From Victivallales bacterium (lineage in GTDB: Bacteria > Verrucomicrobiota > Lentisphaeria > Victivallales > G963678815): a stretch of 64,000 nucleotides of DNA. Positions 20,805-50,777 of this stretch are shown piece after piece; within the stretch, counting starts at the first letter, position 1, and every line of letters starts with the position of its first letter. Position numbers and translations under genes: made by a program. The notes below the pieces were generated by a model. That model had not been told where the DNA came from. It did not search any database and worked only from the letters and a program-made list of their open reading frames with translations. Where the stretch lies: contig OY787460.1 of assembly GCA_963678815.1 (NCBI GenBank), positions 7,031,503 through 7,095,502 on the forward strand, in the 5' to 3' direction.

Positions 20805-23407
20805 TTTTTAACTTCCTTTTTTGAGTTCGTCAAATTCGAATTTGGTTTTTGCCGTTTCTTTAATATTCCTGATAAAGTAACAAACGGATATTTCACGGCA
20901 ACCCAAATATTTATGAAAGTATACTTAATTATCTTTGAAAACATCTTTATAATTATCATCGGCAGCTTGCACAATAAAATCAGGATATTTTTAATACCGT
21001 CAATTATTAACCTGAAAAGCTTGATCAGCGGACGAATGACAGGTTTCAATATTCGTTTTACGGTTTTTAAAATTATAGCAGGAACTTTGCATAATGCACT
21101 CCATACGGATTTTACCACATTCAGCACCACCGTAACCATATAGATAAAAGGGCTAATAACAGCCATTATTATCCGTTTCGCCAGCAACAGGTATTTATGA
21201 ATAACGGATTTTATCCGGTCAATAACATATCGCAGAAGCGGGCGCTGCAATTTATCAAAATTCTTTTCTAGCACCAATGCGGCCCTGATCGATTTGTTCA
21301 TCGACAGAACGTATGCCACCCCAAACCGCAATTCATGGTTTTTATTGCGCCGCCATAAGTTGCGTCTGGAAATAAGATGCTCCAGCACTGGAACAGCCGC
21401 CGCTTCGTTTCTGACTCCCATCGCTTCCACGGCCGCAATGCGATATATATTAGCGGACAATCCGTAACGCTCATTTCCTGCAGCGATGCGCGCCAGCACC
21501 GAACCGCTTGACGGCCCTCTGAAGCTGGACAATATTGATATAATAGCAAGTCTGCAAGCCCTGCCGATACTTTTCTTTTGCAGACTTTCCAGCAACATAT
21601 GTTCGGCTTCACGATTATGACGCATTGCGAGTAAATCAAAAGCTGTAAGTTTGTCATCGATATCTTTGCTGTTCAGCAATTCGGAATAAAGCCGGTTTTC
21701 CGTTTCACGAGAATGCAGCAATTGTGAAATAACCTGATACGGCAGCAATGTTTTTTGGCGTATCACTCTTAAAACAAAAGCCGGAATAAATTCTTTCGGA
21801 AGATACTTGTTTAACGCCAGCAGCAATCCGGCTGATTCTTTCTGATTCCTGCTCGAATATTCGAAAAAAAGATTGGATATTGCCGAAACCTGGTCAGGCT
21901 TCAATTTCTTCCAGAATACCTTATTAAATATTTCAACGGAGGAACTGTCTAACTTTGTGAATTGTTTAAATATGGGAATAAGCGTATCATAATCCTTTTT
22001 CCTGAGGTATAGATCCAGCAGGCTTGCCAGCCGGACACAAATATCCATAATTCTTTCTTCCTCCTTTTCGGGAACCAGTAAATTAGTAAGAACATGCAGG
22101 TAGCCAAGTTCAAGATTGGACTGCAAATTCTCAAAGCGGAAATTCAGGAAATCCGAGTTAACTTCGGAAAGTTCCGAAACATGGATTCCCGGAACAGCGG
22201 TATAATTTATCTTCGCCGCCTGAAATAATTTTTCAAGAAAATCATTAATATTAAAGCTTTCCGGTAATCTTTCGTTTATCAGTTGTTTGCGGAAATATTT
22301 AATTAATTCATCGAGTTTTTTCTTAGTCAGCCGCAAAGACGATACATATTTCAGCGTACCATGGTCCCGGTATTCCTTCATTATTACCTGATAGTATTCC
22401 GGGAAATCGAATGAAAAGAGTTTTACGCTGGTAATGATTTTATTTTTCAGGGTCGAATGACAATAATACTTCAGGAGTTTCAACCGTAATTCACTGTCGA
22501 GGAGGCGTGCGGATTTTTCCAGTTGCCGGGCAACATCCTTGCCGTCCTGCGACGAATGCATCAGGATAACGTTCTCCAACCGCTGCATAATGTTAAACAT
22601 TTTCCCCAATGAAATCATTTTAGGATTGTCAGGATCAGCGCTCAGGAAAACCAGTAATTCCGCTACAGCACGCGAATCGGAAAAAACTTGCACCGCAAGC
22701 TGGATTTCACGCTGTATCATGGTATTTTTCGCACCCCGGTGCAACAGGTAATCAATAAACGGGGTTTCTTCAATTCCCGCTTTTTTCAGCCCGGCCAACC
22801 AATTTTTACGGTTCCCGGAGCCTTGCCCCATGAATTCGGTTAAACCGGCCGTTCCGTCTTCTCCGGAAGCGTCAAGATGTGAAGCAAGGTCAATTTCAAT
22901 ACTGCTGATATTTTCCTGGGAAAGAAGGAATTTAGGGCCCCCGGAATTCAGCAGCATCAACGGTTTCATTGCCAGGATGTTGCATAATCCGATAATATCT
23001 TCTTCGCTGATTCCATTCCAGAACCTGAGCTTGCGGACATGGTGCATTTCAAGGACGTTCGCCAGGTCAGCGATCTGCGGATCATCCATGGATATTTGAA
23101 ATTTCGGGGTTATTAGCTTGTCGCCAATCTTTACCACAACCAGACATTGGTGGTATTCAAACAGTTGATTGCAACTGTTGACCAGGCCGGTAACCGAAGT
23201 AGTAACCAGTTTATGGGTCGGCGGATACAGACGAATATTCTTAAATACTTTTTGAACGTTAGCCAAAAAAGAGAAATAAAGCGCCTGCTGATCGCCCTTT
23301 TTTATTTCATCGGAAAATAATTGATATGACTCTTTCAAAGTGTTCCTCGTAAAATAAATTTGTGGTTCCTCGTCAGTAAATATACGTAACGGAAATACCC
23401 GCATCAC
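20801..23407 (-). CDS. Large (868 aa) alpha-helical repeat (HEAT-like) protein with a C-terminal multi-TM segment. Hypothetical.
   Basis: A long ORF with repetitive helical regions and strongly hydrophobic C-terminal helices (IIMAVISPFIYMVTVVLNVV..., ILILLCKLPMIIIKMF). It is first in a three-gene operon. Confidence 0.5.
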   Translation of the reverse strand: MMRVFPLRIFTDEEPQIYFTRNTLKESYQLFSDEIKKGDQQALYFSFLANVQKVFKNIRLYPPTHKLVTTSVTGLVNSCNQLFEYHQCLVVVKIGDKLITPKFQISMDDPQIADLANVLEMHHVRKLRFWNGISEEDIIGLCNILAMKPLMLLNSGGPKFLLSQENISSIEIDLASHLDASGEDGTAGLTEFMGQGSGNRKNWLAGLKKAGIEETPFIDYLLHRGAKNTMIQREIQLAVQVFSDSRAVAELLVFLSADPDNPKMISLGKMFNIMQRLENVILMHSSQDGKDVARQLEKSARLLDSELRLKLLKYYCHSTLKNKIITSVKLFSFDFPEYYQVIMKEYRDHGTLKYVSSLRLTKKKLDELIKYFRKQLINERLPESFNINDFLEKLFQAAKINYTAVPGIHVSELSEVNSDFLNFRFENLQSNLELGYLHVLTNLLVPEKEEERIMDICVRLASLLDLYLRKKDYDTLIPIFKQFTKLDSSSVEIFNKVFWKKLKPDQVSAISNLFFEYSSRNQKESAGLLLALNKYLPKEFIPAFVLRVIRQKTLLPYQVISQLLHSRETENRLYSELLNSKDIDDKLTAFDLLAMRHNREAEHMLLESLQKKSIGRACRLAIISILSSFRGPSSGSVLARIAAGNERYGLSANIYRIAAVEAMGVRNEAAAVPVLEHLISRRNLWRRNKNHELRFGVAYVLSMNKSIRAALVLEKNFDKLQRPLLRYVIDRIKSVIHKYLLLAKRIIMAVISPFIYMVTVVLNVVKSVWSALCKVPAIILKTVKRILKPVIRPLIKLFRLIIDGIKNILILLCKLPMIIIKMFSKIIKYTFINIWVAVKYPFVTLSGILKKRQKPNSNLTNSKKEVKK

Positions 23408-23408
23408 G
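23383..23408 (-). promoter_or_regulatory. Candidate ECF-type promoter, motif copy C: CGTGATG-N15-CGTA. It lies upstream of, and overlaps, the annotated start of 20801..23407.
   Basis: It shares exact architecture with four other sites: 32891-32916, 43666-43691, 47392-47417 and 50752-50777. Confidence 0.45.
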
Positions 23409-23551
23409 CGAAAAACAATAAATTAACCGTAATTAAATAATTCCGGACGGCAACGGCAATGATGAAATTGTATTATTGGGTTTACAGGCTATAGTTTTTG
23501 TGATAAGATTTTCTCAAATAAAAGACAATATTCAATCGAAAAACAAGACAA

Positions 23552-24622
23552 ATGGTTGATACCAGGATTACCTTAATTGAGAAGTTAAAGGATATCGAAA
23601 ATTTCGAATCCTGGCGTGAATTCCATGATTTGTATGCAGGCATAATCATCGGCTGGGCTTGCCGGATGGGATGCCCCCAGACACTTGCCGCAGATGTTTT
23701 GCAGGAAGTAATGGTAACTCTCTTCAGGTCGATGCCTTCGTTTGAATATACTCCCGACAAAGGCTCTTTCAGGTCGTATTTGAAGGTGATTGTCCAGCGG
23801 CGGACGATTGATGCTTTCAGGCGCGAAGGACGCTATCTCACCGTAAACGAAGATGAAAGTAACCTGTTCGATAAAATAGAGATGGAGGAAGCCACCCCAG
23901 GCGAACCTCTGGAAATGGACGGTATCTGGCTCCGGGAAATCCTTGCTCAGGCCCTTAAAGTTTCATACGGCAAGATAGACCAGCAAACTTATAAGGCTTT
24001 TTGCATGTATGTATTGGATGAACTTCCCGCGGAAGAGGTGATCAAGCGTCTCAACATCAAGCGCCTGGGAACACTGTACCAACAGAAAAGCCGGTTTCTG
24101 ATTATTCTCAAAAATTCATTTTTCACGTTGCTTTGTGAATTGTCAAACGGTGAATTCAATGTGGCAAATACGGATAGTATGGACAAGTTGTTCAACTCCG
24201 CGCTTAATGAGTTAATTCAGGGGAAAAGAGAATTGCGGAACACTTTGGTCAAGTCGGATGAATCCATCGCGGCCATTAAAAACGCACAGACAACCATGAA
24301 CCTGATCAAGAAAAATGTCCCCCCCGAAAAAGACGCTTCATACCTGTTCCTGCTGAAAAAAAACGAGCCTGGAACGTGGATCAAACTTCAGAACAAGCTG
24401 ACAATTGGCTCTTCGGATAAATGTGACGTTGTGCTTGATTATGAAGGCGTTTCAGGACTGCACTGTACCGTTGAAAAGACGGAAAAAGGTTTCATCCTCA
24501 ATGACGAAAACAGCACCAACGGAACCTTTGTCAATAAGAGGAAAATTACCGGCCCCATGATCCTGAAAGACGGTGACACCGTCCAAATAGCGCTCTGCCA
24601 CCTGGTCTTTATTACACCGTAA
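23552..24622 (+). CDS. ECF-family sigma factor (regions 2 and 4) fused to a C-terminal FHA (forkhead-associated, phosphothreonine-binding) domain
   Basis: Region 2 reads 'FHDLYAGIIIGWACRMGCPQTLAADVLQEVMVTLFRSMPSFEYTPDKGSFRSYLKVIVQRRTIDAFRREGR'. The region-4-like HTH reads 'YVLDELPAEEVIKRLNIKRLGTLYQQKSRF'. The FHA domain reads 'LTIGSSDKCDVVLDYEGVSGLHCTVEKTEKGFILNDENSTNGTFVNKRKI...DGDTVQI'. Confidence 0.7.
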   Translation: MVDTRITLIEKLKDIENFESWREFHDLYAGIIIGWACRMGCPQTLAADVLQEVMVTLFRSMPSFEYTPDKGSFRSYLKVIVQRRTIDAFRREGRYLTVNEDESNLFDKIEMEEATPGEPLEMDGIWLREILAQALKVSYGKIDQQTYKAFCMYVLDELPAEEVIKRLNIKRLGTLYQQKSRFLIILKNSFFTLLCELSNGEFNVANTDSMDKLFNSALNELIQGKRELRNTLVKSDESIAAIKNAQTTMNLIKKNVPPEKDASYLFLLKKNEPGTWIKLQNKLTIGSSDKCDVVLDYEGVSGLHCTVEKTEKGFILNDENSTNGTFVNKRKITGPMILKDGDTVQIALCHLVFITP

Positions 24623-25834
24623 TTAAAACGGCAACGGCTTCACGGACTTGCCGTCCTTGTTCCTGCGGCATTTTGAAACATCTATAAAGATCAGCCATTT
24701 ACCTTTTTTCAGACAGCTCGCTACGATGGCGTTGCCTTCTAACACCGCCCGTTTGAACATACCCCTTTCGCCGTCATTGGTCACGGTTGTGGAATTCATA
24801 ATCAGCAGGTCATGGGCGGAAACAGGGGCCATCACTTTTTTGGCGCTTCCGGCATTTTGAATAACATTGATCCCAGCCGGATAATTTTTCCTTTTCAGCC
24901 AGCAGGCCACGAATGCGTGTCCCGGAATAATGATTATTACCGGATGCAAACCGGCGTTTTCCCATATCGCGGCCTCGAGCACGGCCAGGTCAAGACAAGT
25001 TCCCTGCTTATATTTCAGCACGTCGTCATGGGAACGGATCTTCTGTCCTTTCTCGAAGGAGGCCGGAACGGTGATGTAACCGATGTCCAGATCTTTGTTC
25101 ATGGTCCGGTGAATCGCCGTCAACATGGCAAGCACACGCATTGGATCACCCGCCTGGTAATCCTCGAAGGAATCAATCCCCGATACTTCCTTGAGCCTCT
25201 TTCTGGACATGCTGACGATTTTCTTTACCGCCGCGGAGTTCGGCCTTACGAACGCACAGAGATTTTCAATGTTTTCCGGGTCCAGGAACCATTCGTTGAA
25301 GGCCAGAATGTCAACCTTCGAGGTCGATGCGTAAAGGGTTTCCTTTGAATCCTTAATGGTCACCACCAGGGCGGCCGAAAGCCGCTCTTCGACCTCCTTG
25401 AACGCCTTGTGCCGGATCGGGATATGAATGTTCCTGAGAGTTACGGATTTTCCCGCGCCGATTGACGGTATGGTCTGGGTCCATTCCCCGGCATAGTCGT
25501 CCGGACTCAACTTTACGGTCACCAGCAGGTTCGGGGTCGCGGTATTGCCGTTATTGGTAACGGTAATGCTCTTTACAAGCTGGTCGCCGAGGTGGACCAG
25601 GAAATAGTTGAACATCGGCTCATAGACAATTTTTACCTTCAGGTCTTTAGCCTTCACGGTTTCTTTCGGGGCCGGAACCGGAGCTTTTTTTACCGGAATC
25701 GGATACTTTCTCACCTTCCCCATCGGTTTAGGGTTCTTGTACATGCTGTTAAGCGCGTCCTCATAATCGTCCGCAACCGCGCCGATCACCATTGACGCCA
25801 CCGCCATCAAACCCAATACAATCTTTCTCTTCAT
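24623..25834 (-). CDS. Secreted transglutaminase-like (Cys-His-Asp papain-fold) domain protein
   Basis: It has a signal peptide. 'QGTCLDLAVLEAAIW' supplies the catalytic Cys and 'IPGHAFVACWL' the His. Its N-terminal roughly 55 aa are near-identical to the neighbouring gene 25831..28269. It overlaps the upstream gene by 4 nt. Confidence 0.5.
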   Translation of the reverse strand: MKRKIVLGLMAVASMVIGAVADDYEDALNSMYKNPKPMGKVRKYPIPVKKAPVPAPKETVKAKDLKVKIVYEPMFNYFLVHLGDQLVKSITVTNNGNTATPNLLVTVKLSPDDYAGEWTQTIPSIGAGKSVTLRNIHIPIRHKAFKEVEERLSAALVVTIKDSKETLYASTSKVDILAFNEWFLDPENIENLCAFVRPNSAAVKKIVSMSRKRLKEVSGIDSFEDYQAGDPMRVLAMLTAIHRTMNKDLDIGYITVPASFEKGQKIRSHDDVLKYKQGTCLDLAVLEAAIWENAGLHPVIIIIPGHAFVACWLKRKNYPAGINVIQNAGSAKKVMAPVSAHDLLIMNSTTVTNDGERGMFKRAVLEGNAIVASCLKKGKWLIFIDVSKCRRNKDGKSVKPLPF

Positions 25835-28269
25835 TTTTTATCCTTTATTTTATTTAACATTTCCAAAGCTGATTTTTTCCAGTATTCATCATCAGTACTA
25901 TCATAGCATTTCTGGTACCAGAATCTTGCTTTTTCATTGTTTTTTGCTATACCGTAACCGCCTTCGTAATAGATATATCCAAAATCATACATTGCATGTT
26001 CAAGTCCTTTGTTGGCGGCCTTTTCATACCATTCAACGGCCTTGACATAATTTTTTGCCACCCCCGAACCTGAATAATACATCGCACCAATAAAAAACGC
26101 AGCGCTCACGTGACCTTTGTCAGCGGCTTTTCTGTACCACTCTAATGCTTTTTCATAGTCCGAACTCAATAATCCGATGCAATACGTAGCCAAGATATTA
26201 CCATTGTCATAAGACTTTTGAAACCAGAGCATTGCCTTGACGCCGTCCTCTTTACAGCCAACGCCGGTAGTATATGCTCTTCCGGTTATATATTGAGCGG
26301 TTGCATCGCCATTTTCCGCCAAACTTAAAACACCGGGAAATGATTCCTTGCAGATTTTTTCAGTTTTTTCTTTTTTTTCTTTCTTATAATTTAAAAATCC
26401 ATACATCTTGTAATACGCTTTTAAATATATTGCGGGAGGATAATCCGCCGCAGCTGATTGCTCCAGATATTTTTTCTCGAGTTTTTTATCATATTTTTCA
26501 GCCGTTCCGTATCGATAAGCCAATGCCATTTGTCCCTGACCTGAAATAGAACTTTTTGATACATCCGGCTTAGAATATCTGGATTTACTCAAAACGGGAG
26601 CAAGGGCAACGCGGAAGCCCAGATCGAGGTGCTGGCCCGACGGCGTGCGCCAGAGACTATAAGTTGACCGGCAGCGCCTGACGATGCAGGACCAGCTGCC
26701 GCCGGAAATCACACGGTCCGAGCCAGTACTGGGCCCTACAGGATCGGTCCGGGAATTGTTGTCGAGTTTGCCAAACCAGTCATTACACCACTCCCAAACG
26801 TTCCCACTCATATCATGAATACCAAGTTCATTACCACTCTTAGACCCCACCGCGTGCGTTTTTTTACCGCTGTTGTCTTTATACCAGCCAACACGATCAA
26901 GATCATTGCTGCCGCTGTACTTATAACCTTTGCCTTTATTCCCTCCTCGCGCCGCATATTCCCATTCCGCTTCCGTAGGAAGACGATAAACATAGCCTTC
27001 CAGTAGACGGCCAGCGGCACGCTCGCGTTCCGTAAGCTTCTCGCAGAACTTTACCGCGTCATTCCAGCTTACTTGTTCTACAGGATTGCTGTTTCCTTTG
27101 AAATGACTCGGATTTGTTCCTATAAGTGTCTGGTATTCTTTTTGCGTTACTTCATACTTCCCGATCCAAAAGCCCTTGCTGATGGTTACACGATCCACCG
27201 GCCCTGTTTCAGCTGTCCCCATCATGAAGCTGCCGGAAGCCACGTAGACTAATTTCATTCTGAGTTCCGGCACCGAAAATGACTTATCCTTGGCTGACTT
27301 TTTTTTCGTTTTATTGATTTTCGTGATACCCGCCTGATCCATCCAGTCTTTACCATAAAAGCGTTTAATATGCTCATCCGTGTAGAAAACAACGCCAAAA
27401 TTTTTGAAATTACGGGGTCTGCTCCAGGCGATAGGAACAATATCGCCCTTTCCGCTTAAACCGCCTCTATAGACGTAATCAAGCGTTTTTTCAGTAAGTG
27501 TTTCACCGGGTTTTATGGGCTTTGTGCCAGTGCTTGGACTTGTAAATATTTTCAAATCTTCCACATAACCCTCTTTTATCAAGAGATTCAGTCCGGCGGC
27601 GCCGTCAGGCGTTGGGAATTTATCATTATGGTCAAGAGCATATTGCATCAAAATAAGGCCAATACAAAGCAAATCGCTGGAAGCATTACTTCTCGTTGTT
27701 TCAAGTTTGTGCTGGGCCTGATGGATCTTGGCGATGCCTGCTTTTCCCAGCCAGTCTTTACCGGTGAAACTTTTAACATTTCCGTCCGTGTAGAGGACAT
27801 TTCCGTAATCCTCGAATTTATCAGAATTGTCCCAGGCGATAGCCGCAATACCGTCACTTTTTTTCAATCCGCCTCTATAGATATAACTATATAAATTTAT
27901 GTCCGAAGCTTTTTCTTTCAGATATTTTTCCTTTTTCAATAATTCCAGTCCTTCATAGTCATTGAGAAAAGGATATTTACCGTCATGGTCCGCGGCATAA
28001 TTATTCAGGGCCGAACCGATTTGTTTCAGGTTACGGATACTTATTTTTTTTATTTTGTCCAAATATGATCTGATATTGTCATTGTCGGCAGATTTTTTCG
28101 GAGTTGCCTCCGGGAGCGTTTTTTTAACGGGAACCGGATGCTTCCTGACTTTACCTATTGGCTTGGAATTCTTGTACATGCCATTAAGCGCGTCCTCGTA
28201 ATCGTCCGCAATTACGCCAGCCGCAACCGACGCCACCACCAGCAAACTCAAGACGATTTTTCTATTCAT
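25831..28269 (-). CDS. Secreted protein with two leaderless DUF1559-like (H-X9-DG) domains, an FGE-sulfatase (SUMF1-like) domain that retains both active-site-position cysteines, and C-terminal Sel1 repeats
   Basis: It has a signal peptide. 'LKQIGSALNNY...YTDGNVKSF' and '...FYTDEHIKRF' are DUF1559-like. The FGE domain reads 'WIGKYEVTQKEYQ...LPTEAEWEYAARGG...GNVWEWCND...GGSWSCIVRRCRS'. Sel1 repeats read 'AMYYSGSGVAKNYVKAVEWYEKAANKG'. Confidence 0.7.
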   Translation of the reverse strand: MNRKIVLSLLVVASVAAGVIADDYEDALNGMYKNSKPIGKVRKHPVPVKKTLPEATPKKSADNDNIRSYLDKIKKISIRNLKQIGSALNNYAADHDGKYPFLNDYEGLELLKKEKYLKEKASDINLYSYIYRGGLKKSDGIAAIAWDNSDKFEDYGNVLYTDGNVKSFTGKDWLGKAGIAKIHQAQHKLETTRSNASSDLLCIGLILMQYALDHNDKFPTPDGAAGLNLLIKEGYVEDLKIFTSPSTGTKPIKPGETLTEKTLDYVYRGGLSGKGDIVPIAWSRPRNFKNFGVVFYTDEHIKRFYGKDWMDQAGITKINKTKKKSAKDKSFSVPELRMKLVYVASGSFMMGTAETGPVDRVTISKGFWIGKYEVTQKEYQTLIGTNPSHFKGNSNPVEQVSWNDAVKFCEKLTERERAAGRLLEGYVYRLPTEAEWEYAARGGNKGKGYKYSGSNDLDRVGWYKDNSGKKTHAVGSKSGNELGIHDMSGNVWEWCNDWFGKLDNNSRTDPVGPSTGSDRVISGGSWSCIVRRCRSTYSLWRTPSGQHLDLGFRVALAPVLSKSRYSKPDVSKSSISGQGQMALAYRYGTAEKYDKKLEKKYLEQSAAADYPPAIYLKAYYKMYGFLNYKKEKKEKTEKICKESFPGVLSLAENGDATAQYITGRAYTTGVGCKEDGVKAMLWFQKSYDNGNILATYCIGLLSSDYEKALEWYRKAADKGHVSAAFFIGAMYYSGSGVAKNYVKAVEWYEKAANKGLEHAMYDFGYIYYEGGYGIAKNNEKARFWYQKCYDSTDDEYWKKSALEMLNKIKDKK

Positions 28270-28522
28270 TTTCCGCCTTTATCTTATTTAACATTCTCAA
28301 GGCATTTTCATATCCATTATCATAAGCCTTCTGAAACCAGTATTTTGTTTTCAAATGATCTTTTGCTATGCCCAGCCCATCATAAAATAACACTCCAATG
28401 CTATACATCGCGGTTTTACTACCTTTCCCGATGGCCTTTTTATACCATTTATTGCTTTGGTATAGTCCTTTGCAACTCCCTAAACACCATCGTAGTATAA
28501 ACATAATACTTTGCGGATGCAT
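28262..28522 (-). other. Out-of-frame continuation of the kinase 28449..31118 C-terminus. These are the terminal Sel1 repeats, displaced by a frameshift that may be authentic or a sequencing error.
   Basis: The alternative-frame peptide 'KWYKKAIGKGSKTAMYSIGVLFYDGLGIAKDHLKTKYWFQKAYDNGYENALRMLNKIKAENE' matches the canonical C-termini of paralogs (…WFQKSYDN…MLNKL / …WYQKAYDNGDKNAKEKLDKLK). The in-frame ending '...KYYVYTTMVFRELQRTIPKQ' does not match them. Confidence 0.6.
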
Positions 28523-31143: not shown

Positions 31144-31148
31144 AAAAA

Positions 31149-41337: not shown

Positions 41338-41371
41338 TCAGGAGTCAACCACCATTCCGGTCAACTCCTGA
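41338..41371 (-). other. Imperfect inverted repeat (TCAGGAGTCAACC ... GGTCAACTCCTGA) in the 82 nt gap between the lipoprotein gene and the giant kinase gene. Possible attenuator, processing site or protein-binding site.
   Basis: The stem is 8 plus 3 bp with 2 mismatches. No U-run follows on the transcript strand. A direct repeat GATATCAGGATATCAGGA lies adjacent on the transcript strand. Confidence 0.3.
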
Positions 41372-41398
41372 TATCCTGATATCGCCCGAATCCGTTTA

Positions 41399-42373: not shown

Positions 42374-42420
42374 TTTTATACTCTCCTGTAATAGGTTTGT
42401 TGATTATGATCTATCCGGCT

Positions 42421-43632
42421 TTACCGGGCACGGGTCATTAATCTGAACCCGGAAAAGACAAACACCAGCACCAGGATAATGGCAATAAGCACAACCGCAC
42501 CGCCGCCGATACCAATTATCAGATAGGTATTTTCTTCCCAGAACGTTTTTAGTTTTGTGTTTGATGATTGTTCTTCTTCAAATTTGCCGTCGAAAGTCCC
42601 GCCCCAGAGGATTTTATTGTTCTTGAAATCCCTGAGCTTTACGTCAACCATCAAACTTGCTTCGTTCTCATCGCCTTTGGCGTTGATAACTCTGGCGATC
42701 AGGTAGGTATTGGTGCGCGAACCGTATTTTCCCTTGCTTACCGCATTCGGATTGACATTGTACATTTTCTCCAACTTCTTCATGATTTCAGAAAGCTTTT
42801 TCGCCGAATACGTTGGGGAATTCGCTTCAAGGTCAATCGCAATATCTCTAATCTCCAGAGGGTCTACGGAAGAAGGATTGGCGTAAATTGCCATATTTTT
42901 GTCACCGGCGGAAACGAACTGTGAAATCAGGACATCCGAAACGGCACTCGCTTTTTTTCCTATAACCGGCAATACGAAAACATTGCATTCCGGCAATTTA
43001 TTCTGCTCAACGGCAAGCTTTTCCTTGATCTGTCTGCCGGCATCCCTTACGGCTTTCATCAGGGTGTCCGGAACTTCTTCCCTTTTGATGGCGCCCCGGT
43101 AACGGCCGGTAACGTTTCCTTCCCAGATCTGTTCGCCGGTTTCAATTCTGGACAAGGTCAATGTTGCCCGGAAAACCGCGGTCCCGTCGGAATCAGTATT
43201 AGCTTCCCTGATTACGCCGTACAGATATGCCTGAACGCCTTTGAAATCTCCGAATTTCTGCAACGTTTTGGCATCCATGATGTCGCCGCGCTTATGCGCC
43301 AGTTCAATTTCCTTGGTCAGGAGGCCCCATTCAACCTCTTTGCGGGTATAAAACTTGAAGCGGCTTTTCAGGTTGTGAAGGGCGGCCCGGAATGTCGTAT
43401 TGTATCCTTTCCGGTCACCGGCAAGGCCGATAAACGCAATTGAGTCAACTCCCCTGACTTTGCTTGCCGCAGCCATTTTCGAGACAGCTTCTTCCGCGGC
43501 TTTTTCAACCGCGTAATCCATGTCCCGTTCGCCATCCGCCCAAGCCAGCAGCGACAACACGCATAAGATGCAAACCGCAAGACCCGACTTCAGGAACTTT
43601 ACCTTTCTCAATTTCATCCTAAACCTCCTCAA
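42421..43632 (-). CDS. Secreted two-domain protein with a C-terminal TM anchor. Hypothetical, possibly LpoB/TolB-N-like folds.
   Basis: It has a signal peptide and a C-terminal TM helix 'YLIIGIGGGAVVLIAIILVLVFVF'. Confidence 0.45.
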   Translation of the reverse strand: MRRFRMKLRKVKFLKSGLAVCILCVLSLLAWADGERDMDYAVEKAAEEAVSKMAAASKVRGVDSIAFIGLAGDRKGYNTTFRAALHNLKSRFKFYTRKEVEWGLLTKEIELAHKRGDIMDAKTLQKFGDFKGVQAYLYGVIREANTDSDGTAVFRATLTLSRIETGEQIWEGNVTGRYRGAIKREEVPDTLMKAVRDAGRQIKEKLAVEQNKLPECNVFVLPVIGKKASAVSDVLISQFVSAGDKNMAIYANPSSVDPLEIRDIAIDLEANSPTYSAKKLSEIMKKLEKMYNVNPNAVSKGKYGSRTNTYLIARVINAKGDENEASLMVDVKLRDFKNNKILWGGTFDGKFEEEQSSNTKLKTFWEENTYLIIGIGGGAVVLIAIILVLVFVFSGFRLMTRAR

Positions 43633-43665: not shown

Positions 43666-43691
43666 TACGTAAGCAAAAAAACCGCCTCACG
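43666..43691 (-). promoter_or_regulatory. Candidate ECF-type promoter, motif copy B (CGTGAGG-N15-CGTA), 34 nt upstream of the 42421..43632 start
   Basis: An RBS (GGAGGTTT) follows. Confidence 0.5.
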
Positions 43692-43739: not shown

Positions 43740-45338
43740 TTAATCATTCAGGAAATACTGTTTAAACGTAGTAACTTCGGCAATTCCCGACTCAGGGGGT
43801 AATTTTGTTTCAGGCTCGAGCCAATACCATTTCTCATTTTCTTCAACCAGGGCAAACGAATCATGCTTATACCGGATGGCCCATTTTTTCGAGGTATTTA
43901 CCTCTACCGCGGTCAAGGGAAGCCATTTATTGATGATGATGTATGATTCGGGAATACTGTCATATCTGGAAACGGCAATTCCGGAAATAGCGTCTTTAAC
44001 CTGATTTTTTGTCAAGTCATGTACCGAGTCAAATGACGAACTGCCCCGTTCAATATCATTCAGATAGGTTTTGTAAACCCTTAATTTCAAAACAATGTTA
44101 TTGTTGACGGCAATACCGCCCAAGACAAGATCGATTTCCGATTGTACGGGAATGGACTGTTTTTTTGCCCCGATCCGCTGATTGTCGATAAATGAGCCGT
44201 TGGAAGAAGTGTCCGTAACCCAGGCCATATCATCGTCCACCCCTATTTTGCAGTGCAGTCCGCTGATCCGGCAGTTTTCGTAAATCATTCTCTGCCGGTC
44301 CCACGGCGGACTTTCATCCGGGCCGGGAAGTTTTCTGATAATAACGTCGGCGTCCCGGGAGCGTCCGAAAGTAATTTCTCCGTTCAGCAGATGGATTCGC
44401 CGTCCTGAATTCGTGAACAGCGTCAAACTGCTGTATTTTTTGCTCGGGGCGGGAGGAATCGTCAATTTGGGCCTTTGCTGATATCCTATCCCGGATAGCG
44501 GAATAGCGGAAAAGAGGATAAGTTCCGTCCACAGGTCGGTTTTTTTCAGACTGTCGAGCAGGTCGTTCAGCGAACCGCCGGAATCCTGGGCGTTTCGCAG
44601 AATGTCCAGGGCCAAATTCGGATCGCCGCCATAGCCTTCCTGCTTGATGTCGCCGATAGAGATTGTTAAATTGTCCAGAATTTTGTCCTTTGACGTATGC
44701 TGGGAATACACATCTATGGTGATCTGCTGATCAAAGCACATCAATTGTCCGTTCATTTCGTAGGAAAAATAAAAATCAACGGCCTGGGCCGTACCGATAT
44801 TGGCAAGTTTAGGTTTGTAGTTTACATAAACTTCCCTCGGCGCTGAAAGCCGGGCAAAACGCAGCGGCTGTTCCTTGAAGGATGCTTCATAGGGAAATTT
44901 CAGGAACAATCGAAAATTAGCTGCGTTCCGCGATTCCCTGGAAACCGGGGTAAACCTGAAGGATATCGATGAAGTGGTTTCCGCGATAAAAATAGCCGAT
45001 CCCTTGTTCCATTCACACTGGAAATGGGGACAATCCGAGCTGAATCCGCCGTATACCGGTTCAACTTTCGGTGCGGGTCCAGGCTGCCGGACGTCATTGC
45101 CGGTCAGGGGATTATCACTGTCAACCAGGGTCTTCTGCATTGACACGATCTTTTCCCCAACGGTATCATCGGTTTTTGCAGTTTGATTCCGTGCGCTTTC
45201 ATTTACAGTATCAGGTTTTCCTTCAACTGTTTCTGAAAGTTTTTGTTCAGCTCCTGCCGATGTCAGCTTTGTTCCGCAGCTCATACAAACGACATCCGAG
45301 GCGCCAACTGAACTTTCACATTCAGGGCAGACAGGCAT
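43740..45338 (-). CDS. N-terminal zinc-ribbon plus C-terminal FHA domain protein
   Basis: The zinc ribbon is 'CPECESSVGASDVVCMSCG'. The FHA domain reads 'GEITFGRSRDADVIIRK...ISGLHCKIGVDDDMAWVTDTSSNGSFIDNQRI'. Confidence 0.7.
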   Translation of the reverse strand: MPVCPECESSVGASDVVCMSCGTKLTSAGAEQKLSETVEGKPDTVNESARNQTAKTDDTVGEKIVSMQKTLVDSDNPLTGNDVRQPGPAPKVEPVYGGFSSDCPHFQCEWNKGSAIFIAETTSSISFRFTPVSRESRNAANFRLFLKFPYEASFKEQPLRFARLSAPREVYVNYKPKLANIGTAQAVDFYFSYEMNGQLMCFDQQITIDVYSQHTSKDKILDNLTISIGDIKQEGYGGDPNLALDILRNAQDSGGSLNDLLDSLKKTDLWTELILFSAIPLSGIGYQQRPKLTIPPAPSKKYSSLTLFTNSGRRIHLLNGEITFGRSRDADVIIRKLPGPDESPPWDRQRMIYENCRISGLHCKIGVDDDMAWVTDTSSNGSFIDNQRIGAKKQSIPVQSEIDLVLGGIAVNNNIVLKLRVYKTYLNDIERGSSSFDSVHDLTKNQVKDAISGIAVSRYDSIPESYIIINKWLPLTAVEVNTSKKWAIRYKHDSFALVEENEKWYWLEPETKLPPESGIAEVTTFKQYFLND

Positions 45339-45475
45339 TAAATTTTCCCCTTATAAACAAAGTAATGATTTTAAATATCCCCATAATCATTAAAAATTCA
45401 AACAGTTAAAACATTTTCCGTCAGGCTGTTTCACAAAATGATTACGTAAATCACCCTAACGAAAAAGAGTATAAC

Positions 45476-47338
45476 TCAATCGCATGGCTTTGCCAAGACA
45501 ATTCTGAACCCAAGATTACGGTTTTTGTACGATTTATTGTGCTCAATCCGATTTGCGCTGCGGCATGAACCCGCCGGACTGTCCCAGGCTCCCCCCCGGG
45601 CAATCCTTGTATATGCGGATGCCTTGCCGACAGGATCGGTACTTGCCGAGTCCGCATAATTGCTTTTTGAATCATTGCACCATTCCCACACGTTGCCGTG
45701 CATGTCATGGATACCCCACGCGTTAGGCTGACGTGAACCCGCTTTCTCCGGAACGTCATCTTTTGAGCCGAAATTAGCGAATTCGCCAAGTTCATCGATC
45801 ATGCTGCCGCAGGAATAATCGGTTTTGGTTCCGGCCCGGCAGCAGTATTCCCATTCCGCTTCGGTCGGGAGCCGGAATACATATCCGGCGGGAATGCTGG
45901 ATTTCACATACTTGTTTAACTTCCGGCAGAACCGTTCCGCGTCAGTCCATGAAATATCCCTGACAGGTTTGTCTCCCGTATCAATTTTTTTGTCGCTCTC
46001 TTTGCTGCTGTCATCGCTCCCGGAGAAACTCAGAAGCGGTTTATTGCCGGTTTCCTTCTTTTTTTCTTCCGTAAGTGCCTTCATATCGCCAGACATCACG
46101 GCGTTATATTCCGCTTCCGTGATTTCTTTTTTGGATATCCAGAATTTATTTGAGATTTTCACTGTCCTTACCGGTTTTTCGTCGGAATTTCCTTTTTCCG
46201 ATCCCATCTGGAATTTCCCGGGGGATATTTCAACAAATTCTATCCCTATCAGCTTTTTCTCGGGATTTTTCACCGGACTGGCCACCGGGACCGGAGGTTG
46301 CGGTTTAACTCCTTTTTCTTCACTGCCGCCGCCAGACATGCCGATCCTTATCGCCTCAAAACAAATTATAAACGCAATGATTACAGCAGCAGCTATAGCC
46401 ATTACCCGATACCACGAGCGGCGTTCACCCGCATTCATGGCTTCTTTCAATTCCGCGGCGAACCCTCCGGCAGTGGGACGGTTGTTGGGATTCTTGTCCA
46501 GCGCCGCCATAACCACCGAGGCTATCCGTTTGTTAAGGCGCGGAGCGGCCTTGCTCAAAGGTTCAGGTTCTTCCGTTCTCAGCACTTCCAGGGTTTCGTG
46601 TACGGTCAATCCTTCCACCTGGAATGGAAATTTCCCGGAAAAAGCCTCGTAAGCCATGATCCCGAGCGCATAGACATCTCCGGACGGAGCATTCGGGACA
46701 TCAGTATTTCTGGAGGTTTTCTCCGGCGGAATATATGCGGGAGTACCGGAAATATATCCTGTTTGAGTATGGTATATCAGGCTGTCCGCTTCCATGGGCT
46801 TCATTAATCCAAAGTCCAGGAGCTTGATTTCGTCATGACTGTCAAGCATTATGTTGTTCGGTTTTATGTCGCGATGGGTCAACCCCTTATCATGCAGTTT
46901 GGCGAGAATTTCCGCGACTCTGGCAATGATGGCAATCTTCCTTTTCAGTGTCAGGTCTTTTCTGAATACTTCACATAATGTCTGTCCTTCCACGAACTCC
47001 ATGGCGAAATACAGCCAGCCGTCATCATTCCCGCAGTCGAACACCTTTACGCAGCCGGGAATATCCAGCCCCGCCTGAATATGGATTTCCCGCTGAAAAC
47101 GTTCCTGCTCTTCCGAAGTTTGATTTACGTCACGCTTCAGTATTTTCAAGGCAACCTTGCGCTTGAGCTTGGTGTCGTGAGCGCGAAATACGGTTGCCAT
47201 GCCCCCTTCGCCAACGCGTTCCAGATCCTCATATTTCCCCAGCTTCGCGCCGTCAGGCGGACATATACAGGTAGTGGTCTCTGATTTGTCCTCTAAAGCG
47301 GCCAGTTTTACCGTCTTCTTTTCTGGGTCATTGTTCAT
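45476..47338 (-). CDS. Hanks-type Ser/Thr receptor kinase with a TM helix and a C-terminal FGE-sulfatase-like domain. The FGE domain lacks the Cys pair, so it is probably a non-catalytic sensor.
   Basis: Kinase motifs GEGGMATVFRAHD, VALKILK, LTHRDIKPNNIMLD, DFGLMK and GTPAYIPPEK. The TM helix is WYRVMAIAAAVIIAFIICF. The FGE domain reads 'WISKKEITEAEYNAV...LPTEAEWEYCCRAG...GNVWEWCND...GGAWDSPAGSCRS'. Confidence 0.8.
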   Translation of the reverse strand: MNNDPEKKTVKLAALEDKSETTTCICPPDGAKLGKYEDLERVGEGGMATVFRAHDTKLKRKVALKILKRDVNQTSEEQERFQREIHIQAGLDIPGCVKVFDCGNDDGWLYFAMEFVEGQTLCEVFRKDLTLKRKIAIIARVAEILAKLHDKGLTHRDIKPNNIMLDSHDEIKLLDFGLMKPMEADSLIYHTQTGYISGTPAYIPPEKTSRNTDVPNAPSGDVYALGIMAYEAFSGKFPFQVEGLTVHETLEVLRTEEPEPLSKAAPRLNKRIASVVMAALDKNPNNRPTAGGFAAELKEAMNAGERRSWYRVMAIAAAVIIAFIICFEAIRIGMSGGGSEEKGVKPQPPVPVASPVKNPEKKLIGIEFVEISPGKFQMGSEKGNSDEKPVRTVKISNKFWISKKEITEAEYNAVMSGDMKALTEEKKKETGNKPLLSFSGSDDSSKESDKKIDTGDKPVRDISWTDAERFCRKLNKYVKSSIPAGYVFRLPTEAEWEYCCRAGTKTDYSCGSMIDELGEFANFGSKDDVPEKAGSRQPNAWGIHDMHGNVWEWCNDSKSNYADSASTDPVGKASAYTRIARGGAWDSPAGSCRSANRIEHNKSYKNRNLGFRIVLAKPCD

Positions 47339-47391: not shown

Positions 47392-47417
47392 TACGGCTGA
47401 ATTATATCAACATCACG
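47392..47417 (-). promoter_or_regulatory. Candidate ECF-type promoter, motif copy D (CGTGATG-N15-CGTA), 54 nt upstream of the kinase start at 47338
   Basis: The surrounding 40 nt (TGTAACATATATTACGG..ATTATATCAACATCACGG) are about 90% identical to copy E at 50740-50780. Confidence 0.5.
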
Positions 47418-47602: not shown

Positions 47603-50600
47603 TCATTTTTTTATTATTGGGCCAAGCACGACGCGGAAACCCAGGTCGCAGGGCGTGTACCCAGGCGAATTGCCGCCCCGAATCGCCGACCGGCAGCGCC
47701 TGGCGCGGCTGCCCCAACTGCCGCCGCGATTCACGCGGGCCGAGCCTGTACCAGGCCCTGCAGGATCGCTTTGTGTACCGCTGCCATATTCCCCATACCA
47801 GTCATTACACCACTCCCACACATTGCCACTCATATCGTATAGCCCAAGTTCATTACCACTCTTAGTCCTAACTTCATGCGTTTTCTTTCCACTGTTGCCA
47901 TCGTACCAGCCCACACGGTCAAGATCATCACTCCCGCTGTATTTGTAACCACGGCTCTTAGCCCCCCCACGCGCTGCGTATTCCCACTCAGCCTCCGTGG
48001 GTAAACGGTATGCATAACCTTCCGGCAAACGGCCAGCAGCACGTTCACGTTGCGTAAGCCTTTCACAGAATTTTACTGCGTCATTCCAACTAACTTGTTC
48101 CACCGGATTGTTGCTGCCTTTGAAATGACTCGGATTCGTTCCCATAAGATCCTGGTACTCGCTTTGCGTTACCTCGTACTTTCCGATCCAGTAGCCACGG
48201 CTGATCGTTACGCGATGCACCGGCTTCTCATCACTGTTGCCGTCATTCGAGCCCATATTAAAGCTACCTGGGGAAACATACGCAAACTTCATATCCAGTC
48301 CGGGTACCGTCCAGGAATTATCTTTAACGGGACCATCCCACAAGCTTTTCGTGAAATTCTCGATTTCCACCGAAAGTTTGGACAAGCTATTTTTCGCGGT
48401 AGCGTCAAGATACGTGGTTGAAACACTGCGTAATTCCTTCAACGCCGCATCGCAGAACTTACGGGCGGACGGAACATTACTCTTTGACAGCGCCTTGGCA
48501 TAATATACCCGCGCGGTTTTCATAGACTTTTTATAATCGGCTTTCGCGGCAACTCGCTTACGCGCAAACTCAGCTCCGCTTCGAGCATCGTTATTATTCT
48601 CGTATCCGGGGATCTGCATTGCTTCTTTATATTTTGCTTCAGCATCATCCCACTGTTTATTATTCAGCAGTTTTTTCGCTTCAGCCATGAGCCTATCATA
48701 TTTGGCCTTGCGCTGGGCGCGGAGTATTGCCGCAATATCGTTTTGGGTTTTTGGCACCGCTTTGGCAATGAGGGTTACGGCTTTCCGGTAGGATGACAGG
48801 GCTTTATCCCAGTCTTCGGAGGAAACCGCGTTGTCGGCGCTGGATACTGCAAGACGCGCTTCGGCCCAGTCCGCGCCGCCGAATTTGTTTAGGTCAGCGC
48901 GTTTCACCTTGGCTAATTGGGCTTCATATTGTTTTTTGATAATAGCCAGTGCGGAAGTTCCAATAGCATAGTTCTTTGCGTGTTTGTATTCCTTTTCAGA
49001 CGCCGTGAAGCTTTTCTTAGCTCCCGAAAAATCACCTTTTGCAAGCTTGGCCTTGCCATCATCTTCAAGGCTCTTTGCGCTGTTCCAGATACTTTTCGCC
49101 AGACTCGAAGCGTTGCTCTTTTCCGCGCTTTGTTTCTCCTGTTCCGATCTTTTTGAGGATACCATTGCCGAATTTCGTTCCGAATCGAGCTTTACAAGCT
49201 TTCTGCATCCGGTTATTACTTCCTGGTATTTACCTAAAGCATTGCCGTAAGATTTGGCGCCAAACAAGGTTTTTGCGGTATTGAGTTTCAGTTTCAGAGT
49301 ATCTTTTTTCTTTTGAAATCCGTGTTCGGGAGAAATGCGGCTTAACCTTTCGAACACCATTTCCGCGCGGCTCTTGACCGGAGCGGTTTCGGCGAGTCCG
49401 GCTTTTTCCTTGATCCTGTCCTGCATCGTCCGGGCGTAGGAGTTTTGAGGGTCGATCGACAGTATTTCCGAGGCCGCCGCCGAAGCCGCCGACAAGTCCC
49501 CTTTTCTGAATGAAGACTTCAGTTTCTTTTTAAGGGAATTGAGTTTTTCCTGCGTCTCTTTCGCGAGCTGTTCCTGACGCTGGCGTTCTTCCTCTGCCGC
49601 TTTTTCCCTGGCCAATTGTTCGGCTTTGGACTTCTGGACTTCCCGGTATTTGGTGTAGCCGAAATATCCGCCAGCGCCTATAAGGACAAGAATAATCAGC
49701 AGAACCGCAATTATTTTGCCGCCGCCGGAGGATTTAGAGGCGCGTTTTACTTTGACTTTTCCCCTCATAGCATTGATAAACTCGTCACAGGAAGCGTAGC
49801 GGTCTGAGCCTTTTTTGGCTAACGCCTTCATCAAAAGCGCGTTTTGTTTTTTATTCAATTGGGGCAAAGGTTCCGGCATCCGGTTTTCCACCAGGTTCAA
49901 CATCAAACCGGCGTCGCCCGATTCGAAAACCGACTGGAACGGTACGCCGCCGCTGATCAACTCATAAAGCATACAGGCCAGCGCGTACTGATCGGTTTCG
50001 GGTCCCTGGTTTTTACCCGCCCACTGCTCGGGGGCCATGTAGGGGCGCGTACCGGAGGTGTCGAACTGTTCCCGGGAGACCCGGCCCATCGAACTGCGGA
50101 TTTCGGCGGCAAGCCCGAAGTCGAGAACCTTAACTTCTCCATCCGGGGAAATCATGATATTCGACGGTTTCACGTCGCGATGGATGATCTTTTTCGAATG
50201 CGCGAAGTCCAACGCCTGGGCGACTTTTCCGCAGATGTCCAGAGCTTTGTCCAGCGGTACTTTTTTATCCGGGAACTGTTTGCGCCAGTTGGACAGTGTC
50301 GAGCCATTGACATACTCCATCACCACCAGATAACTGTCGGGAAAAACCCGTAAATGTTCCTGGGCGGCGGCGTCAACCTTTTCCACCTTGTGGAGATGTT
50401 CCAGCGAGGCTATGTATTGGTGTTTCAGCTTGGAGACCATTGCAAAGTTGGACCGGACGTTTTCCAGCTCTTCCGGAACCGCCGAGATCATCGGCGGCAA
50501 TACTTTCAATGCGACATTGATCCCTGCCACGGTATCATGCGCCCGGTATACCGCGCCGAACCCGCCAGCTCCCAGTTGCTCGACAAGTTCATAACGGTCA

Positions 50601-50713
50601 ATGCGCCCTAACGATCCGGGAGAATTCCCGTTTTCGGTAAGCATGTTGCCAATGGATAAATCCAGATTTTCGCCACTTTCCGTTTTAAAATCGCCAATAT
50701 TACTATTATCCAT
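47603..50713 (-). CDS. Hanks-type Ser/Thr receptor kinase with a TM helix, a coiled-coil/TPR-like ectodomain and a C-terminal FGE-sulfatase-like domain. The first active-site Cys position is Ser.
   Basis: The N-terminal roughly 650 aa are identical to 28449..31118. The C-terminal FGE domain reads 'WIGKYEVTQSEYQ...LPTEAEWEYAARGG...GNVWEWCND...GGSWGSRARRCRS'. Confidence 0.8.
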   Translation of the reverse strand: MDNSNIGDFKTESGENLDLSIGNMLTENGNSPGSLGRIDRYELVEQLGAGGFGAVYRAHDTVAGINVALKVLPPMISAVPEELENVRSNFAMVSKLKHQYIASLEHLHKVEKVDAAAQEHLRVFPDSYLVVMEYVNGSTLSNWRKQFPDKKVPLDKALDICGKVAQALDFAHSKKIIHRDVKPSNIMISPDGEVKVLDFGLAAEIRSSMGRVSREQFDTSGTRPYMAPEQWAGKNQGPETDQYALACMLYELISGGVPFQSVFESGDAGLMLNLVENRMPEPLPQLNKKQNALLMKALAKKGSDRYASCDEFINAMRGKVKVKRASKSSGGGKIIAVLLIILVLIGAGGYFGYTKYREVQKSKAEQLAREKAAEEERQRQEQLAKETQEKLNSLKKKLKSSFRKGDLSAASAAASEILSIDPQNSYARTMQDRIKEKAGLAETAPVKSRAEMVFERLSRISPEHGFQKKKDTLKLKLNTAKTLFGAKSYGNALGKYQEVITGCRKLVKLDSERNSAMVSSKRSEQEKQSAEKSNASSLAKSIWNSAKSLEDDGKAKLAKGDFSGAKKSFTASEKEYKHAKNYAIGTSALAIIKKQYEAQLAKVKRADLNKFGGADWAEARLAVSSADNAVSSEDWDKALSSYRKAVTLIAKAVPKTQNDIAAILRAQRKAKYDRLMAEAKKLLNNKQWDDAEAKYKEAMQIPGYENNNDARSGAEFARKRVAAKADYKKSMKTARVYYAKALSKSNVPSARKFCDAALKELRSVSTTYLDATAKNSLSKLSVEIENFTKSLWDGPVKDNSWTVPGLDMKFAYVSPGSFNMGSNDGNSDEKPVHRVTISRGYWIGKYEVTQSEYQDLMGTNPSHFKGSNNPVEQVSWNDAVKFCERLTQRERAAGRLPEGYAYRLPTEAEWEYAARGGAKSRGYKYSGSDDLDRVGWYDGNSGKKTHEVRTKSGNELGLYDMSGNVWEWCNDWYGEYGSGTQSDPAGPGTGSARVNRGGSWGSRARRCRSAIRGGNSPGYTPCDLGFRVVLGPIIKK

Positions 50714-50738
50714 ATACTTATTCCATCTTGAATTATCT
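48755..50738. repeat. Copy 2 of the roughly 2 kb direct repeat (copy 1 at 29160-31143)
   Basis: See copy 1. Confidence 0.85.
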
Positions 50739-50751
50739 TTGTAACATATAT

Positions 50752-50777
50752 TACGGAGGGATTATATCAACATCACG
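50752..50777 (-). promoter_or_regulatory. Candidate ECF-type promoter, motif copy E (CGTGATG-N15-CGTA), 39 nt upstream of the kinase start at 50713
   Basis: Same architecture as copies A-D. Confidence 0.5.

Follow-up and report, generated by a model that had tools for sequence, protein, structure and literature searches.

A putative ECF-type promoter motif precedes five predicted transcription units of a kinase-rich island beside an FHA-fused sigma factor gene in a Victivallales bacterium

Sigma factors of the extracytoplasmic function (ECF) type and Hanks-type Ser/Thr kinases are among the main bacterial signalling systems, and the only characterised link between them is the direct phosphorylation of ECF43 sigma factors. 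We analysed a stretch of 64,000 nucleotides from a Victivallales bacterium (assembly GCA_963678815.1, contig OY787460.1, positions 7,031,503 to 7,095,502 of the forward strand), hereafter called the window, in which five copies of a bipartite motif, CGTGAKG-N15-CGTA, accompany an island of kinase genes and a gene encoding an ECF sigma factor with a C-terminal FHA domain (ECF::FHA). An FHA domain is also found at the C-terminus of EmbR from Mycobacterium tuberculosis, a SARP-type winged-helix activator that aids RNA polymerase and is the partner of the kinase PknH. Canonical ECF promoters contain an AAC in the -35 element and a CGT in the -10 element, separated by about 16 nt (PMC3426412, PMC8103513). 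ECF41 promoters, described for Bacillus licheniformis Ecf41 and for Rhodobacter sphaeroides, read TGTCACA-N16-CGTC, with a group-specific -35 element devoid of AAC (PMC3426412). ECF43 sigma factors, such as EcfP with its kinase PknT in Vibrio parahaemolyticus and EcfK with PknS in Xanthomonas citri, lack the DAED motif of region sigma2.2 and are activated by a phosphorylated threonine at this place (PMC13147305, PMC8999054). An adjacent anti-sigma gene is not universal among ECF sigma factors, since neither ECF41 nor ECF43 has one (PMC3426412; PMC13147305, PMC8999054). Neither the main text of the ECF re-classification nor ECF reviews nor full-text searches yielded an FHA-fused ECF or anything on ECF sigma factors of Lentisphaerota, and a group number for them may still appear in the supplements of the re-classification. 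Judging from sequence comparisons, we give a probability of about 0.7 to the reading that the five sites are promoters recognised by RNA polymerase with the adjacent ECF::FHA as its sigma factor.

An exact pattern search confirmed that CGTGAKG-N15-CGTA occurs exactly five times in the window, on the minus strand each time, co-oriented and with a fixed gap of 15 nt, at the places reported in the initial annotation. The latter had also held that such a number exceeds chance, and indeed 0.04 matches are expected and none of 100 dinucleotide-preserving shuffles reached five. All five copies are intergenic, though gaps between genes represent only 5.5% of the window, and every site points at the next minus-strand gene, with 33-53 nt from the end of CGTA to the start codon. 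When one mismatch was allowed in a looser pattern, just two extra matches were obtained, both in coding sequence and on the other strand, for about ten expected, so that the five sites form a discrete set with no halo of near-matches. In addition, an unbiased enumeration of two-block motifs over 17 intergenic regions returned CGTGA-N17-CGTA as the sole motif containing G+C that is shared by five regions. The motif is missing from all other operons of the window. As initially proposed, the sites precede five putative minus-strand units, and these units span the whole gene block from 19017 to 50713.

Site A (CGTGATG-N15-CGTA, 23383..23408, minus strand) lies 44 nt from a TTG codon at 23338, itself preceded by GAGGA, and is the putative promoter of a HEAT-like operon (20801-23338, 19395-20804 and 19017-19394). 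The ECF::FHA gene runs in the divergent direction and starts 144 nt from the site. The one copy that overlaps an annotated start, formerly given as the third, is in fact site A, which overlaps the start of the longest open reading frame (GTG 23407). Site B (CGTGAGG-N15-CGTA, 32891..32916, minus strand) is found 38 nt from ATG 32852 and is the putative promoter of a zinc-ribbon/SPFH gene and of the kinase gene 28449-31118, possibly also of 25831-28269 and 24623-25834. Site C (CGTGAGG-N15-CGTA, 43666..43691, minus strand) lies 33 nt from TTG 43632 or 48 nt from ATG 43617, the ATG being preceded by a GAGGAGG Shine-Dalgarno sequence; its putative targets are an LpoB-like lipoprotein (42421-43617), another lipoprotein (41399-42373), a giant Sel1 kinase (36238-41316) and a further Sel1 kinase (32963-36232). 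Sites D (CGTGATG-N15-CGTA, 47392..47417, minus strand) and E (CGTGATG-N15-CGTA, 50752..50777, minus strand) each face a kinase-FGE gene, 53 nt before ATG 47338 of gene 45476-47338 and 38 nt before ATG 50713 of gene 47603-50713, respectively. Apart from the two blocks and a T-rich spacer, sites A-C have nothing in common.

To see whether the motif accompanies the sigma gene elsewhere, we used a comparative set of 43 loci around ECF::FHA genes, 34 of them non-redundant, the profile search of contigs having yielded relatives 32-43% identical. The exact window pattern had no match in the first related loci fetched. Locus L003, whose orthologue is 54% identical, contains two copies of CGTGAK-N16-CGAA, with 0.06 expected. 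One copy occupies the position of site A, in the intergenic region between the sigma gene and its divergent neighbour. Across the 34 loci, the pattern GTGAK-N16-CGWA gave 14 matches less than 1 kb away from the sigma gene, spread over 12 loci. The rate in far regions predicts 1.3 matches and the base composition 1.7 (Poisson P ~2e-10). In the other 316 kb, 7 matches were seen for 9 expected, that is, no enrichment. As a control, 287 permuted-block patterns averaged 1.0 near matches, and changing the spacing to 12-15 or 17-20 nt gave 0-2 near matches compared with 14 at 16 nt. Columns lying outside the search pattern were also conserved, with a G at -2 in 14 of 18 sites, a C at -1 in 15 of 18 and a T two bases past K in 15 of 18, indicating that the -35 block extends to about GCGTGAKaTT. 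When orthologous intergenic regions are aligned, conservation is limited to the two blocks, and the spacers diverge. The related-locus sites are non-coding, and most of them end 25-73 nt before a start codon. The same motif beside the same ECF::FHA gene in related genomes makes promoters read by ECF::FHA the most likely identity of the sites.

The position of the motif relative to the sigma gene takes at least five forms. It is divergent upstream in the window and in L003, L026, L009, L015 and L019, upstream on the same strand in L022, immediately downstream in L033, downstream and convergent in L001 and L002, and downstream as a back-to-back pair in L017, L031 and L043. The genes that follow the motif are of recurrent types. 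In L026, the motif stands between the ECF::FHA gene and a divergent kinase gene whose product has an N-terminus 56% identical to that of the site-E kinase. In L009, the targets are a divergent 1081-aa kinase-FGE protein and an LpoB-like protein, and in L017 the target is an LpoB-like+FGE protein whose homologue in L043 is likewise located behind a site. Genes for kinases, FGE-domain proteins and LpoB-like proteins are thus located behind the motif in the window as well as in relatives, and other target classes also exist elsewhere: a secreted protein of ~200 aa that recurs in L001/L002, L017, L031 and L043 has no match among the island proteins.

The back-to-back pairs (L017 3985-4082, L031 3711-3802, L043 1261-1342) belong to one Victivallales clade. 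They are located some 0.7-0.9 kb downstream of ECF::FHA, and about 50 nt separate the two -35 blocks of a pair. The gene for the ~200-aa secreted protein and the LpoB-like gene are each faced by one copy in L017 and L043, and the latter gene includes the FGE domain in the full-length L017 copy; the L031 contig ends just past the second copy. An 11-nt block, CGCGTGAGATT, is identical across the three loci in the copy facing the 200-aa gene. A variant of the motif was also seen. In L027, a one-mismatch form, GCGTTAGA-N..-CGAA, precedes the LpoB-like gene. In this locus (ECF::FHA 42% identical), GCGTTAGA replaces GCGTGAGA on the minus strand at ~4090-4120 and 12950-12990, before the LpoB-like and kinase-FGE genes, and this variant may reflect a lineage-specific shift in -35 specificity.

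The candidate cognate sigma factor is encoded on the plus strand at 23552..24622 and counts 356 aa. It is composed of sigma2 (~8-92), a disordered linker (96-119), sigma4 (~119-197), a helical linker (207-252) and an FHA domain (264-354). It matches TIGR02937 (sigma70-ECF) over residues 21-187 with 50.2 bits for a cut-off of 42.9, it matches Pfam Sigma70_r2, and its FHA domain is recognised by Pfam with an E-value of 5.9e-19. As in ECF (group 4) sigma factors, only sigma2 and sigma4 are present, with fewer than 50 residues between them. An AlphaFold (AF2) model built from 28 family members (pLDDT 81, pTM 0.75) displays two helical sigma domains and an FHA beta-sandwich, the latter matching the FHA structures of GarA and OdhI with TMt values of 0.8-0.9. 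The top whole-chain PDB match of the model is EmbR (E 1.9e-9), of which only the FHA part superposes (TM 0.25), and weak PDB sequence matches to the ECF SigE were also obtained. Among 5.8 billion proteins, 27 relatives of the same architecture were found, giving 28 clusters in all, and every named member belongs to Lentisphaerota/Victivallales. In the 28-member alignment, the residues D48, Q51 and E52 of the core-binding sigma2.2 motif are invariant or nearly so (consensus ..KADDVFQET..), G286, S301, H304, N323 and G324 of the FHA domain are invariant, so that SxxH and NG are kept, and an invariant Thr231 stands out in the otherwise variable linker between sigma4 and FHA, making this residue a candidate phospho-acceptor. 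Comparative loci, recurrent target classes and the TIGR02937 and FHA matches thus support the core of the initial proposal, namely an ECF-type bipartite promoter with the neighbouring ECF::FHA as its cognate factor.

What such a promoter would look like can be proposed from the alignments. The -35 element would be (G)CGTGAK, specific to the ECF::FHA family and without AAC, followed by a 16-nt spacer if the hexamer is taken as CGTGAK, and the -10 element would be CGTA in the window and CGAA, CGTA or CGGA in relatives. The CGT of canonical -10 elements is present in all five window sites as CGTA, and the fixed spacer agrees with the usual ~16-17 nt, CGTGAK-N16-CGTA being equivalent to GTGAK-N16-CGWA. 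Transcription would start a few bases downstream of the -10 element, leaving leaders of ~25-45 nt. The two blocks at a fixed distance, their orientation to the gene, the short leaders and the presence of one site per gene in divergent pairs argue for promoters rather than operators; back-to-back divergent pairs in which each site faces its own gene fit promoters and not a single operator. The five promoters would drive the whole ~32-kb minus-strand island, that is, six Hanks-type kinases, FGE/Sel1/TPR sensor proteins, LpoB-like lipoproteins, an SPFH protein and the HEAT-like operon. An RNA element was considered as well and rejected: no Rfam match was found anywhere in the window, and the leader regions of the five sites fold with ordinary energies (z-scores from -2.3 to +1.0) and have no structure in common.

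Several observations weigh against this reading. The AAC of canonical -35 elements is missing from all five window sites and from the relatives, and the third base of the -10 element varies across the family (T, A or G), leaving only C, G and the final A conserved. The spacers of sites D and E hold a perfect extended -10 sequence, TGATATAAT (TGnTATAAT), at 47401-47409 and 50761-50769 on the minus strand, and the five window sites can all be read as GTGAKG-N17-TAnnnT, so that a housekeeping promoter may overlap the ECF-type one or compete with this reading in the window genome. Among the related loci, only 12 of 34 have a site within 1 kb, and kinase-containing loci exist with a variant site or none (L027/L028). 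Shared phylogeny makes the related loci non-independent, and 8 near matches were obtained for one control pattern through a conserved fucosidase coding sequence alone; owing to this kinship, the number of independent events is nearer to the five arrangement classes than to 12. The relaxation of CGTA to CGWA was decided post hoc, once the L003 sites had been seen, and the permuted-pattern and spacing controls were run for that reason. The last point concerns the FHA domain. Phosphopeptides are bound by FHA domains through the residues GR, SxxH and NG, and the Arg contacts the phosphate. The residue after G286 is Ser (S287) in the window protein, and only 5 of the 28 members have Arg there, the other 23 being non-Arg, so the lack of this canonical phosphate-binding residue weakens the link to kinases.

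We weighed three other explanations. That the five matches are functionless, being relics of segmental duplication in a paralogue-rich island or products of chance, appears extremely improbable. The island is indeed full of paralogues and repeats, including a ~2-kb duplication with 100% identity (29139-31118 = 48734-50713) that corresponds to the 5' halves of two kinase genes and comprises the kinase domain and the following region. However, the identity stops ~26 nt upstream of the ATG, short of site E, and the other copy, located behind the SPFH gene, is without the motif; site E was thus not brought along by that duplication. Sites D and E are clearly copies of each other, as they share a 42-nt block, CCGTGATGTTGATATAAT......CCGTAATATATGTTAC, which spans from the -35 element to ~16 nt past the -10 element and has its four differences all in the spacer; the flanks of this block are unrelated, and the likeness among the sites in general is confined to the motif. 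Being paralogous, D and E reduce the five copies to about four independent events. Since the 100%-identical duplication ends before the motif and the D/E block covers only 42 nt, we rejected the idea that the sites were carried along as passengers. Besides the low chance expectation, the motif recurs with fully diverged spacers in distant genomes whose ECF::FHA is 36-57% identical, and this conservation across genomes effectively refutes an absence of function. An explanation by housekeeping (sigma70/RpoD) promoters, in which GTGAKG would be a weak -35 element (xTGAxx) located 17 nt from TAnnnT and the extra C and G would be local idiosyncrasies, is quite improbable in our view. It draws on the -10 hexamers that this reading yields (TATATT, TAAAAT, TACAAT and twice TAATAT), on the extended -10 sequences of D and E, on TTGATA-N16-TATGTT, which a generic scan flagged too, and on the use of sigma70-like promoters in this lineage, for example before ECF::FHA genes. 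Against it, the -35 block agrees with TTGACA at no more than 3 of 6 positions, A-C went unflagged in the generic scan, and the motif is on no other operon of the window. A C-G conserved before both blocks and the clustering beside ECF::FHA are not expected of a housekeeping promoter either. Above all, relatives have CGAA as their -10 element, with C or T next (AAcaac, AActtt, AAtgat), and this destroys TAnnnT while the blocks and their spacing are kept, so that the sigma70 reading cannot be the conserved function; we rejected it as a general explanation on this ground. A basal housekeeping promoter may nevertheless overlap the ECF-type one at D and E and give the kinase-FGE sensors a constitutive low expression.

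It is also possible, although unlikely, that the sites are read by another protein and that ECF::FHA is merely a neighbour. The reader would then be either a different alternative sigma factor, with its gene at some other place in the 8.6-Mb genome, or a transcription factor bound to two CG half-sites about two helical turns apart (CGTGA...CGTA, 22 nt from start to start). The -35 block without AAC would suit such a reader, as would the 22 of 34 ECF::FHA loci that have no site within 1 kb and the imperfect inverted repeat CGTGA...TTACG formed by the blocks in sites A-C. This repeat is absent from D, E and all the relatives' sites, and we rejected a palindromic operator because its symmetry is limited to A-C. 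Moreover, ECF::FHA is the one gene common to all loci where the motif clusters, and the enrichment is limited to its vicinity. The island contains no second regulator gene, and the GntR genes of the window belong to flanking sugar-utilisation loci. Finally, a spacing with a single value, an orientation towards the gene, a distance of 25-73 nt to the start and one site per gene in pairs are promoter-like features. The statistics, position and orientation of the motif, its conserved blocks and strict spacing, its clustering beside ECF::FHA genes, the recurrent target classes and the domain architecture of the sigma factor are observed, whereas the promoter function, its reading by ECF::FHA and the phospho-control with feedback are inferred.

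How the sigma factor itself would be produced and controlled was approached from the surroundings of its gene. No CGTGA motif was found on the plus strand upstream of 23552. The gene is preceded by a sigma70-like candidate promoter, TTTACA-N17-TAAGAT with a TG extension (23481..23509, plus strand), and, as the motif is absent there, autoregulation does not take place in the window. A possible exception is formed by L022/L039, in which the sigma gene has a site upstream of it on its own strand. In relatives (L005, L012-L016), a conserved CTTGAAAT-N17-TATGATA precedes the ECF::FHA genes, the fuller form of its -10 element being TATGATAGTAT; these promoters provide a first view of housekeeping promoters in Victivallales. 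The ECF::FHA gene of the window appears monocistronic, with a convergent lipoprotein gene downstream. Pfam and NCBIfam scans of the genes neighbouring ECF::FHA detected no anti-sigma domain in any of them. In the absence of a nearby anti-sigma and of autoregulation, and with the acidic residues of sigma2.2 kept, control is probably exerted via the FHA extension. The sigma factor would be made from a housekeeping-type promoter and controlled post-translationally, the most likely input being the C-terminal FHA domain, through which Thr phosphorylation by the island kinases would act on sigma activity. This could occur in two ways, either by docking of the FHA domain on an autophosphorylated kinase or by its binding to a phosphothreonine in the sigma factor's own linker (Thr231). 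A feedback loop from kinase to sigma to kinase can reasonably be inferred from this organisation.

With respect to the described systems, ECF41 is the closest in logic, ECF43 the closest in signalling partners, and EmbR the closest architectural analogue. Like ECF41, ECF::FHA is an ECF sigma factor with a fused C-terminal regulatory extension instead of an anti-sigma, and it would have a private -35 element without AAC, a ~16-nt spacer, a CG-containing -10 element and target genes directly beside the sigma gene. As the targets adjoin the sigma gene in both cases, the promoter is predictable from conserved genomic context. The two differ in that ECF41 has a SnoaL-like extension and controls a single COE gene, whereas ECF::FHA has an FHA domain, a predicted -35 element GCGTGAK and five predicted units over ~32 kb that encode mostly Ser/Thr kinases. 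With ECF43, ECF::FHA shares the lack of anti-sigma and the genomic link to Ser/Thr kinases, and the logic proposed, from kinase to sigma, is the same. In contrast to ECF43, in which the DAED/DxxDxxQE motif is lost and a Thr found instead, ECF::FHA keeps D48, Q51 and E52, has no Thr at that position and carries a phosphothreonine reader. The kinase of ECF43 is also a co-encoded regulator, while the kinases of the island are predicted to be targets as well. EmbR (PDB 2FEZ/2FF4) resembles ECF::FHA by an N-terminal part that recognises DNA and activates, joined to a C-terminal FHA domain that links it to a Hanks kinase; it is, however, an activator, whereas ECF::FHA would itself be the promoter-specificity subunit, and there is no homology outside the FHA domain. 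The initial comparison to promoters of Bacillus subtilis SigW/SigX/SigM (TGAAAC-N16-CGTA) holds for the bipartite structure, the ~16-nt spacer, the CGTA of the window genome and the 'TGA' in the -35 element. It fails for the -35 block, GTGAKG without AAC, and ECF::FHA shows neither autoregulation nor anti-sigma; as relatives mostly have CGAA, CGTA being specific to the window genome, the SigW analogy is loose.

What appears to be new here is the association, within an ECF regulon predicted from context, of an unusual -35 element, an unusual fused domain and an unusual kinase regulon. If true, a phosphothreonine-binding sigma factor with a private promoter and a kinase regulon would represent a different wiring of both signalling systems. 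Tentatively, and with rather less than even confidence, we propose that ECF::FHA defines an undescribed ECF group restricted to Lentisphaerota, in which a single protein would relay the signal of a Hanks kinase to RNA polymerase via a phosphothreonine reader that would turn the sigma factor on or off with no need of an anti-sigma, with a regulon reached through GCGTGAK-N16-CGnA and made mostly of kinases and their envelope sensor partners, that is, a self-amplifying kinase-sigma-kinase circuit. The locus offers five putative promoters of known sequence beside their candidate sigma factor in Lentisphaerota, where transcription is almost undescribed, and the pair is probably orthogonal and could serve as a new sigma/promoter pair in synthetic circuits.

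The genes downstream of the five sites were annotated by Pfam and NCBIfam scans. They form a continuous minus-strand block from 19017 to 50713 (~32 kb), in which the sole plus-strand gene is 23552-24622. Outside the island, the window contains sugar-utilisation genes with GntR regulators and no second sigma factor. The predicted unit A (19017..23338, minus strand) encodes a HEAT-like 845-aa protein, a 469-aa protein of unknown family and a 125-aa zinc-ribbon-like protein. The HEAT label of the initial annotation corresponds to a real match that stays just under the Pfam gathering cut-off (26.8-26.9 bits for 27.7). Neither Pfam nor NCBIfam supports the HD-GYP label given to 19395-20804, and raising the Pfam E-value limit to 5 did not change this; this 469-aa protein contains only isolated HD dipeptides and a 'GKYP', and would be highly degenerate if it has an HD-type domain at all. 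Predicted unit B (24623..32852, minus strand) comprises a zinc-ribbon/SPFH protein (31149-32852), a Hanks kinase with TPR/Sel1 (28449-31118), an FGE+Sel1 protein (25831-28269) and a transglutaminase-like lipoprotein (24623-25834). The 179-nt gap inside this unit (28270-28448) has no motif.

Predicted unit C (32963..43617, minus strand) encodes two lipoproteins (42421-43617, which is LpoB-like, and 41399-42373), a 1692-aa kinase with 21 Sel1 repeats (36238-41316) and a 1089-aa kinase with Sel1 repeats (32963-36232). Predicted unit D (43740..47338, minus strand) starts with the first of the two kinase-FGE fusions (45476-47338) and may include the zinc-ribbon/FHA gene 43740-45338, which has its own sigma70-like candidate promoter at 45496-45468. 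Predicted unit E (47603..50713, minus strand) is the second kinase-FGE gene, of 1036 aa. The two kinases whose 5' halves are identical have different C-terminal sensor parts, TPR/Sel1 in one and FGE in the other, and the identity of these ~2-kb halves points to recent gene conversion or domain shuffling.

Other repeats were noticed in the island. In addition to the 21 Sel1 repeats of kinase 36238-41316, six were counted in kinase 32963-36232, and at the DNA level arrays of 108/111-nt units amount to 31 copies across the island, with 60-84% identity to a reference copy. The adjacent genes 24623-25834 and 25831-28269 have paralogous N-termini (MxRKIVLxL..VAS...ADDYEDALNxMYKN.KP.GKVRK), encoded by a DNA repeat of 153 nt with 78% identity (25685-25837, 28120-28272). 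These N-termini resemble lipoprotein-type leaders placed on different C-terminal domains, transglutaminase-like in the former and FGE+Sel1 in the latter. Finally, the 264-nt gap between the site-E kinase gene and site D contains a 15-nt direct repeat, GGTGAAACCTCGYCC, present twice on the minus strand (47452-47466 and 47566-47580), 114 nt apart, for 0.2 expected. A 7-bp hairpin (CCAAGGATTATCCTTGG) lies between the two copies, in a region of ordinary folding energy.

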